DNA of 64,000 nucleotides. Source: an uncultured Holophagales bacterium (GTDB lineage Bacteria > Acidobacteriota > Thermoanaerobaculia > Multivoradales > UBA5704). Both the position numbers and the translations under genes were made by a program. Under the pieces are notes generated by a model. The model had not been told where the DNA came from and did not search any database. It saw only the letters and a list, made by a program, of their open reading frames with translations. The stretch is taken from positions 384,001-448,000 of the forward strand of contig CAWJGT010000009.1 of NCBI GenBank assembly GCA_963842525.1. Reading direction: 5' to 3'. Below are positions 41,650 to 50,403 of the stretch, one piece after another. How positions within the stretch are numbered: position 1 is the stretch's first letter; each line of letters opens with the position of its first letter.

Positions 41650-41677
41650 AGTGCCCGCATGCGGGACAAACGGGACA
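41650..41677 (-). promoter_or_regulatory. Conserved bipartite motif TGTCCC-N18-CACT upstream of receptor 2
   Basis: Minus strand TGTCCCGTTTG-tcccgcatgcggg-CACT, same 28-bp span as the six peptide-gene copies. Confidence 0.65.
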
Positions 41678-41692
41678 GGCTTCCGATGCTCG

Positions 41693-43021
41693 TCACCCCT
41701 CCTGGTGCCCTCGCAGGCGGTCGAGCCGGGAGACGAGGAAGCGGATCAGGTCGAGCGCGCGGCGCTCGTGAGCGGCAAGCCGGCGCAACTGGAGGAGGGA
41801 CACGTAGAGCTCCCGGTCGACGTGGAGGGCGCGGAAGGCCGCTGCCGTCTCCCCCAGGGTCTGCTCCAGCTCTTCCGATGCGCCCAGGCGGATTTGGATC
41901 CCTGCCAGGTCGAGGGAGATGACCGCCAACTCGTAGAAGAGCCCCCGTTCCTCAAAGCCTCCGCGGGCCTGGCGCAGCGCCACCTCGGCCGCCCGCAGGT
42001 GCCCCAGGTCGCGCAGGATCTGCCCCTCCTGCCAGCCGGCGCGCAACTGGATCAGGGGGTCCTCGACGCTGCAGTACAGGTCCCTCACCTCGGAATGGAT
42101 CTCCAGCGCCCGGTCGGGCTCGCCGAGGTCGATGTAGCAGCGGACCAGGTTGTGGCAGGCGGCGAGCAGCAGGTGCGGGTCCGCCGCCGGATCGATGAGC
42201 GGGAGCGCCCGGTTGAGCAGGCGCACCGCGAGGTCCGCCTCGCCGCCATAGAGCGAGGCGACCGCCCTTTGCACCATGGTGCTGGCGAGAGACGTCCTCT
42301 CGTCGAGCTCGCGATAGATCCGTCCCGCCTCCTCGGCCAGGTCCGTCGCCTCCTGGAAGCGCCGCTGGAAGATGTATAGCGAGGCCGTCTGCTCGCAGAG
42401 CAGGGCCCGCAGCCTGGGATCGCCCGTCCCCTGGCCGCGGAAGCGCTGCGCGGCCGCGAACGCCTCCTCGGCCTCGTACAGGTGCCCGCAGACCCGCAGG
42501 GCATTGGCGACCTGCCGCCATGCCTGGGCCAGCAGGTCGGCCAACCGGGGCGCGCTCCCCGCCGACTCGACGGAGCAGCCCTCCGCGGCCCGGCGCGCCA
42601 GCTCGGCCAGGTGCAGCATGCGGCCCGGATCGTCGTACCGCACAGCTTGGCTGTCCGCGAGCAGGCGGCGGACCAGCGGGGGTGAGGCGAAACGTGGATC
42701 AGCCGCGCGGTGGAGCTGCTCCTCGCGCGGCAGCGCGGCGAGCTCGGCCAGCAGCTCCTCGGGTTGTTGGACCGGAGAGCGCCCTTCCGCCAGAACCTCG
42801 GCCAACGCCCGCCCGGCGGCGGCGAAGGCCTGGCCATAGCCGCGCTCCGACGGCCGCTGGCTCCGGATCTCGATCACGAGCTGCTGGCAGACGGGGCAGC
42901 CGGCCAGCAGGTGGCGGATACAGCGCGCATCGCCGGCCGCGGCCCTTCCGGAGCCCTGGCGCAGAAAGCTCGAAATATCGACGACGGATGCGTGTGGAGT
43001 CGGCATGACGATCTCGGCCAT
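41693..43021 (-). CDS. Zinc-motif + TPR-like protein (receptor 3)
   Basis: PHAS...[50 protein letters not shown]. Confidence 0.88.
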   Translation of the reverse strand: MAEIVMPTPHASVVDISSFLRQGSGRAAAGDARCIRHLLAGCPVCQQLVIEIRSQRPSERGYGQAFAAAGRALAEVLAEGRSPVQQPEELLAELAALPREEQLHRAADPRFASPPLVRRLLADSQAVRYDDPGRMLHLAELARRAAEGCSVESAGSAPRLADLLAQAWRQVANALRVCGHLYEAEEAFAAAQRFRGQGTGDPRLRALLCEQTASLYIFQRRFQEATDLAEEAGRIYRELDERTSLASTMVQRAVASLYGGEADLAVRLLNRALPLIDPAADPHLLLAACHNLVRCYIDLGEPDRALEIHSEVRDLYCSVEDPLIQLRAGWQEGQILRDLGHLRAAEVALRQARGGFEERGLFYELAVISLDLAGIQIRLGASEELEQTLGETAAAFRALHVDRELYVSLLQLRRLAAHERRALDLIRFLVSRLDRLRGHQEG

Positions 43022-43063
43022 GATGGCATGGGGGCGGCTCGCGCCGCCCCCGCGTCCCTCGGC

Positions 43064-43393
43064 TCAGTACTGGCACCAGGGCCGGGGATTGCCCTGCGGA
43101 TCGATACAGGAGCCGGTATTGGGCACGACGACGATGATGAGACCGCCGCCGGGAGGATCCGTGACCTTCTTGCCGGCCTGCGAGACGGTTCCGGTCAGAC
43201 GTCCCAGGGTGCGTTCGCCGCCAGGCAGCAGGCTCTGGAGCCAGCTCAGGGCCGCATCGAACCAGGACAGGTCGCCGGTGAGGGCGGTCTCTCCGGATGC
43301 GAAGGGGCGTGCGTGAGCGGCGGGGGCGAGCGCGACGAGGCTGAGGATGACGACGACGGCGGCAGACAGACGACAGCACAGAGAATGAGACAT
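43064..43393 (-). CDS. Secreted GxxIDPxG peptide precursor (109 aa)
   Basis: RBS GGGAGGG; signal ending AAHA; WFDAALSWLQSLL; TGSCIDPQGNPRPWCQY*. Confidence 0.85.
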   Translation of the reverse strand: MSHSLCCRLSAAVVVILSLVALAPAAHARPFASGETALTGDLSWFDAALSWLQSLLPGGERTLGRLTGTVSQAGKKVTDPPGGGLIIVVVPNTGSCIDPQGNPRPWCQY

Positions 43394-43477
43394 GTTTCCC
43401 TCCCTACATAAAATGCGGTGCGCGATCGCCGCGTCCCGCGAATAGACAGCCTTCAGTAGATTCGCTCTTGGCCTAGT

Positions 43478-43505
43478 AGTGCGGAGACGGGGGGAAACCG
43501 TGACA
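43478..43505 (-). promoter_or_regulatory. Conserved bipartite promoter-like motif
   Basis: TGTCACGGTTT-N13-CACT, 85 bp upstream of ATG 43393. Confidence 0.7.
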
Positions 43506-43521
43506 CCTCTGTAGCACAACC

Positions 43522-43782
43522 TCAGGAGCCGCACTGGATGGGCTTGCCCTGGGGATCGATGCAGGAACCGGTCGCGTTCCTGACCTCGATCCGCTGTGAC
43601 GGTCCGGCCGGGGAGCTCTTCGGCGCCAGGAGGCCGGCGAGCCAGGACAGCGCCGTATCGATCCAGGTCGCCTCGGACTCCTGGAAACGCTGGGCCCCAG
43701 GTCTGCTCGCCTCTGCCATCGGAGCGGCGAGAGCGGTGAGGAGGACGGCGACGACGAGAGCGCGAGAGATGGAACGGAGCAT
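43522..43782 (-). CDS. Secreted GxxIDPxG peptide precursor (86 aa)
   Basis: RBS AAGGAGG; signal ending MAEA; WIDTALSWLAGLL; TGSCIDPQGKPIQCGS*. Confidence 0.85.
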   Translation of the reverse strand: MLRSISRALVVAVLLTALAAPMAEASRPGAQRFQESEATWIDTALSWLAGLLAPKSSPAGPSQRIEVRNATGSCIDPQGKPIQCGS

Positions 43783-48085: not shown

Positions 48086-48186
48086 ATCAATCCCTCCTTA
48101 CTGAAAGCGAACAGCACAGTGTCGCGCCGCCCGCGAACAACCACCATAAGAAAAAGCTACAGAAAATAAATGCTGCTTATCATAGA

Positions 48187-48214
48187 AGTGCCACCCACAA
48201 GGTAAAGTGGGACA
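48187..48214 (-). promoter_or_regulatory. Conserved bipartite promoter-like motif
   Basis: TGTCCCACTTT-N13-CACT, 102 bp upstream of ATG 48085. Confidence 0.7.
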
Positions 48215-48533
48215 CTTCGCCGCACACGCTAAATATTGATGTTTGCGGCTAAATACAAAGATTTCAAGTAGAATATATTGAAGACTGCTGCCTGGTGGGC
48301 TCGAAAGCCTCTTTCGATTTATAGGCTGTTTGAAGGTCTGGGAAGTTTCTGTCCGGAGTGGAAAAGCGAAAAATAGGAACAAGCTCAGAAATTAGGAGGC
48401 CGCAGATTGGGCGGCAAATGAATCTGAGGCCGCCCCTTCCTGTAGAAATAGGGAACTCGATGAGTCCCGTATCGGGCTCGAGTACGGGCGATGCTGCGAG
48501 GCCGGCAGCCTTGCACCGCTCTGGAAGGACGTT

Positions 48534-49916
48534 CTATTTGTCGAGCGCGCCAGGGTCGGACAGAGCAGCAAGCTGGGTGTTGAGTGCGCTGATCAGCTCG
48601 AGCGCCTTCTGCTCCTGGTTGGCGGCCTGCTGGAGCTGGAGAAGCGAGGCGAGCGTTGCGTGTGGCACACGTAGGGCCCGGAAGATTGGCATCACTTCCG
48701 TGATTGTCCGCTGTAGTTCCTCCACCCGGCCCAAACGCACATAGACGGAGGCCAGGTCGAGAGAGACACGAGCCACCTCATAGGCGAGGCCTCGTTCCAT
48801 GAAGCCTCGGCGTGCCGCCCGCAGCGCCGATTCGGCGGCGCGCAAGTGTCCGAGATCCCGGAGCAGAGTGCCCTCCTGCCAGCCGGTACGCAGCAGGATA
48901 GTCGTGTCCTCCTCAAAGTCCCCGTAGAGGCTGCGGACCTCGAAATAGAGCGACAGCGCCAATTCGGGCTGTTCCAGATCGATGTAGCCCTGGACCAGGT
49001 TGTGACAGGCGGCGAGCAGGAGGTGCGGGTTTTCCTCAGGCTCGATCAATGGGATGGCCTGATTGAGGAGGAGGATTGCTCGCTTCGCATCACCGGCATA
49101 CTGAGCGGCCAGCGCCATCTGAACCATGGTGCTGCCCAGGCTGTGGTTATCACCAAGCTCTCGATAGATATCTCCCGCCTCCTTCGCCTGCGCGGTAGCC
49201 TCCTGAAAACGGCCTTGGAAGATACACAAGGAGGCAGTCTGTTCCAGGACTCGTGCGCGCACCACTGGATCCCTGGTGCCCGCAGCCAAGTACCGCTGTG
49301 CAGCCCGTAGCGCGTCCTCAGCCGGCGCCAATTGTCCAACGATTCTGAGCGAGTTGCCCAAGTACCCCCAAGCTCGGGCCTGAAGGTCGGCCAGCCGGAG
49401 CTCGCTTCCGGCTGTTTCCACATGACAGCGCTGCGCTGCCAACTGCGCCAGTCGAGCCAGATGGAGCATTTTCTTCGGATCTTCGTAGCGAACGGCGTGG
49501 GTCCGATTGGTGAGCTGCCGCACCACTTCGGGATGAGCGAACCGGGGATCGTCTGCAACAAGTTGGAGCTGCCCCTCTTCGGATGCTGCGAGCAGCTCAG
49601 CGATGAGTTCCTCCTGCGCTTGGCTCGGAGGTTGCTCCTCGGCGAAAAAGGCGCCTAAGCGGCGTTCCGCTCCGGCGAACGCAGCGCTGTAAGCCTGGTC
49701 TGCCGCTTGCGGGATGTATTCCGCGGCTGCAGAGAGTTGCAGGAGACGCTCCAGGCGCCGCCCACTCCACCCAAGGCAAAGGAGTTGTTCCCTGCAGGAG
49801 GCGCAGTCTGCCAGAAGATGCCGGATCAGGCGTGCTCTACGAGGGGAGGCCATGGTTTGAGTTCTCAGCAAAAAAGCCTTGAGCTCCGCTCTCGTCGGAT
49901 GATCTTGCTGCTTCAT
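48534..49916 (-). CDS. Zinc-motif + TPR-like protein (receptor 6)
   Basis: DHPT...[50 protein letters not shown]. Confidence 0.88.
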
Positions 49917-50005
49917 GGACGCCCTCCCAAGCTCTACGAAGCGGGGGGTCGACCGCGGTCGATCCCCCGGAGAGAGGTGGTGCGGTGTATGCCGCCCCGG
50001 GGTCT

Positions 50006-50272
50006 TTACGAATACCAACAGGGCCGCTCGCGGCCCATCGGATCGATGCACGGTCCGGTCGAGCTACTCTTGGCCGTCTGCTTCTGTCGTTTCGGCTTGT
50101 TCCCACCGGCCAGGCCCTTCATCCACGCCACGGCAGCCTGCAGCAAGCCGACATCGCTGCTGACCACGGGCTTGGCGCTGTTGGGACGGGCTTGAGCGCT
50201 GGGAACGGCGGCGATAGTAAAACCAAAGACCACGACAGCCACAACTACAACCCGAAACATGGAACGCAACAT
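50006..50272 (-). CDS. Secreted GxxIDPxG peptide precursor (88 aa)
   Basis: Signal ending [33 protein letters not shown]. Confidence 0.87.
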
Positions 50273-50375
50273 AATTCATCCCCCTACGAAAAGCGGGCTG
50301 ACCCGACCACGGCGGCCGGACTGCCCGCGGATTACCGCCATCAAGAACTGCAAATGAGCGCTGCTTACCAGAGAA

Positions 50376-50403
50376 GGTGTGACACCCGGCGAAAAGCGGG
50401 ACA
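50376..50403 (-). promoter_or_regulatory. Conserved bipartite promoter-like motif
   Basis: TGTCCCGCTTT-N13-CACC, 104 bp upstream of ATG 50272. Confidence 0.7.

Follow-up and report, generated by a model that had tools for sequence, protein, structure and literature searches.

The DNA analysed here, referred to as the window, is a stretch of 64,000 nucleotides from an uncultured Holophagales bacterium of the acidobacterial class Thermoanaerobaculia (assembly GCA_963842525.1, contig CAWJGT010000009.1, positions 384,001 to 448,000). Its minus strand carries an array of genes for small peptides (P1 to P6) and for putative tetratricopeptide repeat (TPR) receptors (R1 to R5) in the order [P1 R1] [P2] [P3 R2] [P4 R3] [P5] [P6 R4] [R5], punctuated by a bipartite sequence motif, TGTC[AC]C-N18-CAC[TC], whose function is the subject of this study. 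The peptides, encoded at 50006..50272 (P1), 47822..48085 (P2), 47291..47563 (P3), 45387..45662 (P4), 43522..43782 (P5) and 43064..43393 (P6), comprise 86-109 amino acids and share a signal peptide, upon removal of which about 60 residues remain, and the conserved C-terminus TG-x-C-I-D-P-x-G-x-P-x-P-C (Cys loop). P1 matched no Pfam or NCBIfam family. P1 to P4 are recent paralogues, and their leaders share similarity beyond the motif. The five receptors, at 48534..49916 (R1, behind P1), 45841..47223 (R2, behind P3), 44004..45311 (R3, behind P4), 41693..43021 (R4, behind P6) and 40154..41536 (R5), consist of 435-460 amino acids, are mutually 53-65% identical and contain TPR repeats; a zf-HC2-like N-terminal domain is predicted ahead of the TPR superhelix, as in R1. 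R1 to R4 have no motif of their own and start 43-90 nt behind a peptide gene. R5 has its own motif site and is the protein that was used for modelling.

Exactly seven matches to the motif were found in the window, all of them on the minus strand, compared with an average of 0.32 and a maximum of two in 100 dinucleotide-preserving shuffles, none of which (0/100) reached seven. An earlier note on this DNA had described the motif at seven 28-bp positions, and all seven (7/7) were reproduced on the strand it gave. Six sites precede the peptide genes P1 (50376..50403, TGTCCCGCTTTTCGCCGGGTGTCACACC, weight matrix score 28.9 bits), P2 (48187..48214, 22.2 bits), P3 (47666..47693, 26.4 bits), P4 (45766..45793, 26.4 bits), P5 (43874..43901, 24.6 bits) and P6 (43478..43505, 27.7 bits, only 17 nt 3' of the P5 stop codon). 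The seventh (41650..41677, 26.5 bits) precedes R5 with no peptide gene in between. While this placement stood, the distances of 85-114 bp to the start codon given in the note were off by one; we measured 84-113 nt. The inner spacer is indeed devoid of conservation (no more than 0.4 bits per position), but the conserved part had been drawn too small, as G7, T9 and T10 after TGTCMC, a purine before CAC and a T after CACY are also kept. Two sites had in addition been listed as variants with N17. That at 55268..55294 (minus strand, 23.4 bits) is a full match with a 12-nt spacer, while that at 55863..55889 (plus strand) is weaker and lacks the TT.

The motif was also followed in 52 Thermoanaerobaculia loci (609 kb) from species-level genomes, the receptors of which are 48-60% identical to the query. 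The full element reads TGTCMCG-n-TT-y, 12-13 unconserved bases and R-CAC-Y-T, followed by a weaker purine-rich, tAGAG-like block that lies 8-12 nt after CAC, jitters in position, has no conserved T and reaches 0.9 bits in its best column. In its strict form the motif occurs 72 times in these loci, always on the strand of the receptor genes, and each of the 72 sites has a peptide-like or receptor open reading frame (ORF) within 163 nt downstream. Most of these sites (51) span 28 nt, while 20 span 27 nt and one spans 29 nt; with another search pattern, 93 of 96 sites share one common spacing. In all 96 aligned sites CAC is preceded by a purine (A 61, G 35 at position -1), even though this position is absent from the search pattern, and CACY is followed by T in 74. 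According to the earlier note, equally conserved flanks would mark the motif as a mere duplication relic. The upstream flank (-35 to -12) does not exceed 0.13 bits in the 96 aligned sites, and the motif is retained where receptor identity falls to 50-60%. An approach from the genes gave the same picture. Of 89 peptide genes identified without using the motif, 88 were testable, and the motif stands upstream of 47/88 in its strict form, 59/88 in the form of the earlier note and 81/88 in a relaxed form; genes missing the strict motif mostly have TTC instead of TTT. The 6-mers most enriched upstream of peptide genes, determined free of any pattern, are TGTCAC, GTCACG and TGTCCC, and TGTCAC occurs in 54/88 of these upstream regions versus 106/3011 background windows. 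Judged from these sequence comparisons, the motif is real, conserved and under selection.

Genome-wide, the loose pattern gave 135 matches compared with 37 in a reversed control, a number inflated by an unrelated repeat. This MITE- or REP-like repeat (miniature inverted-repeat transposable element, repetitive extragenic palindromic), TGTCCCCCTCTCCCATC[GT]CCC..., has dozens of copies, which are frequently paired in inverted orientation at a distance of 115-230 bp (e.g., on contigs C3:987353(+)/987509(-), C6:159716(+)/159943(-), C14:28644(+)/28760(-) and C9:951949(+)/952064(-)), and is the source of most matches to the loose pattern. A tightened pattern yielded 16 sites in the genome, and a weight-matrix scan of its 9.95 Mb returned 26 sites of at least 20 bits against two in the reversed control. 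Beyond the array, the targets are three genes for helix-turn-helix (HTH) proteins of the HTH(XRE)-TPR type (C9:578565, C7:90876 and C9:1874003, with a further motif-bearing one in the related genome G041), further zinc finger (ZnF)-TPR genes and x-DP-x-G peptide genes, genes for three secreted paralogues of about 198 amino acids and large genes resembling acyl-AMP ligases and nonribosomal peptide synthetases (NRPS). In 92 genomes of the family, roughly 890 sites were counted, about 150 of which were covered individually. The receptor is present in 73/92 of these genomes, with 0/8 in genus g2 and 1/10 in genus g68. In the eight receptor-free genomes of g2 the motif is still enriched, with 38 sites against three in the control, and in one of them it lies ahead of an HTH-TPR gene, an ITIDPDG peptide gene and acyl-AMP-ligase-like genes. 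The idea that the array forms one regulon thus holds by virtue of the common cis element, but the bounds drawn for it do not: about 20-26 sites per genome define what is, by this count, a family-wide regulon that extends to genera without these receptors. When 121 genomes of the class were sampled, motif-rich genomes were confined to family f1 (18, 8, 2 and 10 sites) and family f4 (8 sites); the other 116 have 0-2 sites each.

The architecture of the element is that of a promoter. As proposed in the earlier note, a -35/-10 geometry with fixed spacing (27 or 28 nt) is present, and the distance from T1 to C24 equals that from -35 to -12 in holoenzymes of the sigma-70 family. The HTH-TPR genes start about 33-34 nt after CACY, a distance that can accommodate a leader of about 26 nt including a ribosome-binding site but no second promoter. 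Furthermore, the motif heads mini-units ending in terminators. In the window, a strong intrinsic terminator lies about 150 nt beyond the site at 55294-55268 (minus strand). The resulting small-RNA-like or leader unit (55112..55260, minus strand; stem at 55123-55140 plus eight T) resides upstream of a patatin-like gene (54139-55062, minus strand). No copy of this unit was found elsewhere in the genome or in the related loci, and together with its site (55112-55294) it may represent a small RNA or a leader with attenuator function. In a genome of family f4 (G020:C21; L107:332-800), three units lie in tandem, in each of which the motif is followed by a stretch of about 65 nt, almost the same in all three, and by a terminator; these are candidate motif-driven small-RNA genes. 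Since such motif-plus-terminator mini-units exist, the motif apparently acts as a promoter, and this new promoter motif, that of a family-wide regulon, is most likely read by an ECF-type sigma factor (extracytoplasmic function, ECF).

The known promoter classes were compared with the element. The housekeeping consensus (TTGACA, 16-18 nt, TAnnnT) does not fit, since the third block has no conserved T and only one of the seven window sites (that of P2, TTTACC-16-TATGAT) passes a sigma-70 scan. The clade's own sigma-70-type promoter, TGGACA-N15/16-TGnTAGCCT, is found in 30/30 loci upstream of sigA, a sigma factor gene introduced below, and its dissimilarity to the motif shows that the latter is not of the housekeeping type. 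This promoter lies about 60 nt before sigA in loci L073-L102; before the paralogous sigB (L074-L102) the variant TAAGCT is seen. Sigma-54 promoters have GG and GC elements 10 nt apart (TGGCAC-N5-TTGC). Here, there is no GG before CAC (G at -2 in 13/96 sites) and no TTGC 5 nt later, and this type was rejected as well.

The sigma factor in question had been presumed to be encoded outside the window, and none of the 47 genomic Sigma70_r2 hits falls inside it. A tblastn search of the 52 loci with sigA and sigB detected no sigma gene within 6 kb of a receptor. One strong site (C23:256512) points away from a neighbouring gene for an ECF42-like sigma factor carrying DUF6596 and was discarded. Other parts of the genome are more informative. 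Paralogous ZnF-TPR genes stand directly behind ECF sigma genes, with peptide genes alongside: the gene order is sigA, ZnF-TPR, peptide, sigB, TPR on contig C34, and peptide, sigma-2-like ORF, ZnF-TPR on contig C32. The sigA gene (C34:43547-44092) encodes a minimal sigma2-sigma4 protein. The motif is absent upstream of sigA itself in 30/30 sigA loci. In other lineages, a variant of the motif heads a peptide-sigA operon. In 5/5 genomes of genus g64, a 28-nt variant (TGTCCCGCC...AGCACT), a CxLDPxG peptide gene, sigA and a ZnF-TPR gene follow one another, and in G020 the gene immediately ahead of a sigA-type sigma gene encodes an xIDPxG peptide and is headed by the variant TGTCACGG...TGCACG. The peptide gene ahead of sigB, both in the source genome and in genus g66, has a promoter that is built alike but differs in its letters, TGTCTTTGG...GCGGAAAC...TATAGAGG, which is what paralogous sigma factors of diverged specificity would give. 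Sigma factors of the sigA type (E ≤1e-30) occur in only 8/121 sampled genomes of the class, and the five genomes with at least three copies are the five motif-rich ones. The source genome has six of this type, at C34:43547, C34:45964, C25:327953, C3:1988839, C10:11017 and C23:21136. We also noted an orphan minimal ECF sigma factor without an adjacent anti-sigma gene (C25:327953-328492, minus strand), which is 69-94% identical in 92/92 family genomes; by sequence this conservation is unusually high for an ECF sigma factor. Taken with the modelling described next, the best candidate for the sigma factor would be sigA or a close paralogue.

The N-terminal 60 residues of the receptors are predicted to form four helices (model confidence, pLDDT, 79.5), and H5, H33, C38 and C41 are invariant in 28 receptor sequences. 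In an hhalign comparison, the N-terminal profile matched that of a paralogue with 96.9% probability (E 1.9e-10), and this paralogue in turn matches the Pfam domain PF13490 with 33.9 bits (cut-off 22.2; E 3.3e-8) and, weakly, RskA_N. The receptor N-terminus is therefore homologous to the zf-HC2 zinc anti-sigma domain. The top match in the ESM Atlas, a cluster with zf-HC2 on 13% of its members (score 0.84), is a lead only, and a PDB sequence-profile search of the N-terminus gave an unrelated protein at best (E 0.08). A complex of sigA with residues 1-100 of R5 was modelled with a score of 0.62, compared with 0.00 for the best of three controls; the mark set for this score is reached by 116/157 solved complexes and 2/215 mismatched pairs. 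Contact agreement between runs was at least 82%, the pLDDT of the partner at least 71, and the modelled interface spans sigma regions 2 and 4. The model thus supports binding of sigA by the N-terminal domain of R5. Full-length R5 was modelled as a TPR superhelix (pLDDT 87.1), the best PDB matches being TPR proteins that bind peptides, namely LGN/Pins (E 2e-7) and pheromone-bound Rap (4gyo_A, E 1.1e-5, TM 0.51/0.63; Rap of phage Phi3T). This fold match is generic; as far as a model can tell, it fits peptide binding and is no proof of it.

On this basis, we consider it probable that the motif is the core promoter of a regulon that is read by an ECF-type sigma factor encoded elsewhere, held by the TPR receptors and released by the peptides. 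The -35 element would be TGTCMCGnTTy and the -10 element RCACY-T, with the transcription start lying in the purine-rich block, about 7-9 nt downstream. Separate promoter copies would serve R5 and each of the peptide genes, and R1 to R4 would be transcribed by read-through from the preceding peptide gene. The receptors would be cytoplasmic proteins combining a Rap/LGN-like TPR superhelix with an N-terminal anti-sigma domain of the zf-HC2 type, by which they may sequester the sigma factor; its release would be triggered by the cognate secreted peptide with its Cys loop (C-terminus CIDPxGxPxPC). The freed sigma factor would then fire all motif promoters, with positive feedback and cross-talk across the array as a consequence, and thereby also those of the HTH-TPR regulators, other peptides, secreted proteins, acyl-AMP-ligase/NRPS-like genes and small RNAs. 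The identity of the sigma factor, the sensing and entry route of the peptide and the feedback are the parts of this scheme that we infer. The interpretation put forward in the earlier note is largely right in kind, with a sigma factor as the probable reader of the motif.

Several observations weigh against this proposal. ECF promoters usually have AAC in the -35 and CGT or GTC in the -10 element; here, the -10 letters are CAC, and the -35 element TGTCMC lacks AAC. In the source genome, a correctly oriented motif is not found directly upstream of any of the 47 sigma genes (0/47), where one had been looked for, and sigA and sigB carry sigma-70-type promoters, such that the autoregulation usual for ECF sigma factors is missing in this genome. 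The phyletic match between motif and sigA rests on two clades, and kin are not independent. Within the family, sigA is present in 88/92 and the C25 sigma factor in 92/92 genomes, including those of receptor-free genera, and the phyletic profile at this level therefore supports neither. Pfam zf-HC2 (PF13490) was matched by 0/28 receptor N-termini even at E ≤10, and the receptors have H-x4-C-x2-C in place of H-x3-C-x2-C. A Foldseek search with the N-terminal model gave nothing at E ≤0.001, and VIA-align reached a Z score of 4.2 at best, MucA-cyto (8z6g_A) ranking 26th with Z 3.0 and a root mean square deviation of 4.1 over 56 residues. The pass of the sigA-R5 complex may reflect likeness to solved complexes of ECF sigma and anti-sigma factors, and since close cousins of a true partner also pass this test, sigA is not singled out by it. 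A secreted, probably disulfide-looped peptide would also have to enter the cytoplasm to meet its receptor. Finally, three HTH-TPR genes carry the motif, their TPR parts being 28-32% identical to the receptors over about 340 residues, and about 45% of the sites have an additional TCAC 11 bp upstream.

The last two points could also be explained if the motif were the binding site of an activator, for example an HTH(XRE)-TPR protein, over a weak housekeeping promoter with the TAGAG-like block as its -10 element, that is, an RRNPP-style system in need of no dedicated sigma factor. The motif-bearing HTH-TPR genes resemble autoregulated regulators of the PlcR type, a third conserved block does follow CACY, and the P2 site can be read as the sigma-70 promoter given above. 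Nevertheless, we hold this explanation to be unlikely. XRE-type dimers bind palindromes, and the motif is asymmetric. With the start site placed accordingly, the strongest blocks would fall at -47 to -37 and -25 to -21, where there are no polymerase contacts, and -35 would be unconserved. The third block, with its jitter, its missing T and a best column of 0.9 bits, makes a poor -10 element, six of the seven window sites fail the sigma-70 scan, and the clade's own sigma-70-type promoter looks quite different. The 5' leaders of the HTH-TPR genes would moreover shrink to about 13-16 nt, and the receptor N-terminus is of the anti-sigma type and was modelled on a sigma factor. That the motif is a functionless relic of the tandem duplications from which the array arose could be argued from the recent paralogy of P1 to P4 and the further similarity of their leaders. 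This is contradicted by a motif that is near-invariant over 96-120 sites in 52 species-level genomes while flanks and spacer are not, and that is also found, away from the array, ahead of unrelated genes of this genome and in the receptor-free genus g2, and the probability we assign to it is negligible. We regard as very improbable, too, that the 28-mer works as a nucleic-acid structure, whether as a hairpin, as a terminator for the gene upstream or as a site of RNA processing, with its conserved C-rich left arm pairing with the spacer. All seven window sites (7/7) can form a stem of 4-7 bp (-3.0 to -11.1 kcal/mol), but the mean folding energy of 116 sites (-4.33) is no lower than that of spacer-swapped sequences (-4.58 ± 0.14; 191/200 nulls at or below the observed value) and close to that obtained with shuffled spacers (-4.20 ± 0.17; 43/200). 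No Rfam match at E ≤1 was found in 40000-56500, and no T run follows the sites.

A wider version of the sigma-based proposal deserves mention. The family may possess a peptide-gated sigma network in which dozens of secreted Cys-loop peptides (x-I/L-D-P-x-G) are each paired with a cytoplasmic TPR receptor and the receptors compete for sigA, sigB and the C25 sigma factor, with the motif being the promoter of just one of these, and which would amount to a combinatorial, self-amplifying circuit for quorum sensing or kin recognition. In such a network, the receptors of the array would act through an anti-sigma domain, and their paralogues through an HTH or a piece resembling sigma-2. We put this forward tentatively and give it somewhat less than an even chance.

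Some further features of the locus and its relatives were recorded. A palindrome, AGAACGCGTTCT (41630..41641, no strand assigned), lies 8-9 nt after the CACT of the R5 site and is a possible operator over the predicted transcription start. The corresponding sequence GAACSSGTTC is located 8-10 nt after CACY in 29/120 sites, and only three of its 32 copies in the loci lie anywhere else. In the longer form (A)GAACSSGTTC(T) (GAACCGGTTC) it is present in 28 loci, for example L021, L032 and L037. It is the mark of one orthologous promoter class, and downstream of CACY it is possibly a repressor operator covering the predicted start site. In the peptide leaders (50375-50273, 48186-48086, 47665-47564 and 45765-45663, minus strand), a GC-rich hairpin, GCGGGC...GCCCGC, followed by a T run just before the ribosome-binding site resembles a terminator or attenuator, and a second conserved hairpin, GGGGGATCGAC...CCCCC, is found downstream of the P1 and P2 stop codons. 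Over 86 peptide genes, leader folding is unremarkable overall (mean z -0.56), and an automatic test for a hairpin followed by a U run was positive for 5/86 leaders; this test is crude and was not relied upon. The upstream half of the array (44000-50000) has a G+C content of 59-63%, compared with about 68% for the genome.

The receptors belong to a very large paralogous TPR family with interchangeable N-termini, either HTH_3, a zinc-finger type or a neighbouring sigma-2-like ORF (97 amino acids in L058). Its members are spread over many contigs of the source genome, often adjoin x-DP-x-G peptide genes, and include a ZnF-TPR paralogue inside the window (24494-25882, plus strand). Some x-DP-x-G peptides have three Cys-loop repeats (L054:2638-2961). 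The weak motif variant at 55863..55889 (plus strand; TGTCCCGCCTC...GCACC) precedes an HTH-like/TPR ORF, whose ATG at 55926 follows after 36 nt; the same type of variant, TGTCCCGCC, is found ahead of peptide genes in genus g64. The TPR part of this ORF (55926-57068, plus strand) matches HTH-TPR paralogues in two frames (C9:440373-440651 and 440642-440827), so that either the gene is frameshifted or the assembly is in error here. Contig C31 carries close copies of this ORF. All-against-all clustering of ORFs across the loci revealed no conserved neighbour beyond the TPR family, a result confounded by shadow frames.

Thermoanaerobaculia are an abundant, largely uncultured soil group, and we know of no experimental work on their promoters or cell-cell signalling. 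None of the papers listed in a full-text literature search combines Thermoanaerobaculia with a promoter motif, peptide signalling or an RRNPP-like system. With the motif, a regulon of about 20 genes per genome, comprising peptide signals, receptors, small RNAs and secondary-metabolite genes, can be traced computationally, and a promoter-sigma pair becomes open to testing. The array may be the first in which peptide signals act through soluble TPR anti-sigma factors. If this is true, RRNPP-type logic extends beyond the Firmicutes into a Gram-negative phylum, ECF sigma regulation gains a new class of input, and orthogonal sigma, anti-sigma, promoter and peptide parts would become available for synthetic circuits.

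The closest published motif is the promoter of the ECF41 group, TGTCACA-n16-CGTC (PMC3426412). ECF41 promoters are likewise bipartite with a spacing fixed within 1 nt, a -35 element beginning with TGTCAC, a short -10 element of 4 nt and a small dedicated gene set, and the sigma factors have a fused SnoaL-like domain, no anti-sigma factor and an adjacent COE gene as target (PMC3426412). In comparison, the -10 element here is RCACY-T instead of CGTC, the -35 element extends to G.TT and one more base lies between the elements; the candidate sigma factor is a minimal sigma2-sigma4 protein with separate anti-sigma-like TPR partners.

A different comparison is offered by ChrR, RsrA and RslA, which are zinc-binding (zf-HC2, class I) anti-sigma factors. 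With these, the receptors share an N-terminal helical domain with invariant His/His/Cys/Cys, a modelled clamp on sigma regions 2 and 4 and the location of receptor paralogues directly after ECF sigma genes. Soluble anti-sigma factors are predicted in 10 ECF groups and other variants may exist, according to a published account (PMC7826278). In contrast to the class I proteins, the receptors of the array do not adjoin a sigma gene, have the spacing H-x4-C-x2-C, stay below the Pfam threshold, possess a cytoplasmic TPR superhelix of about 330 residues as sensor together with a gene for a secreted peptide, and are present in five copies in one array.

Rap proteins have no HTH and release a bound protein partner upon peptide binding. 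With the RRNPP peptide quorum-sensing systems (Rap, PlcR; PMC10075063), the array has in common a gene for a secreted peptide adjoining that for a cytoplasmic TPR receptor of Rap-like fold, as well as a common cis element ahead of signal and regulator genes, although LGN/Pins TPR proteins match the receptor at least as well as Rap does. The differences are just as clear: RRNPP systems are those of Firmicutes, whereas the host is an acidobacterium; the array receptors lack the HTH and the three-helix bundle of Rap and appear to have an anti-sigma-type output, HTH_3 being found in some paralogues; the peptides are not short and linear but retain a conserved Cys loop after signal peptide removal; and in place of a palindromic box, the cis element is asymmetric and promoter-like.

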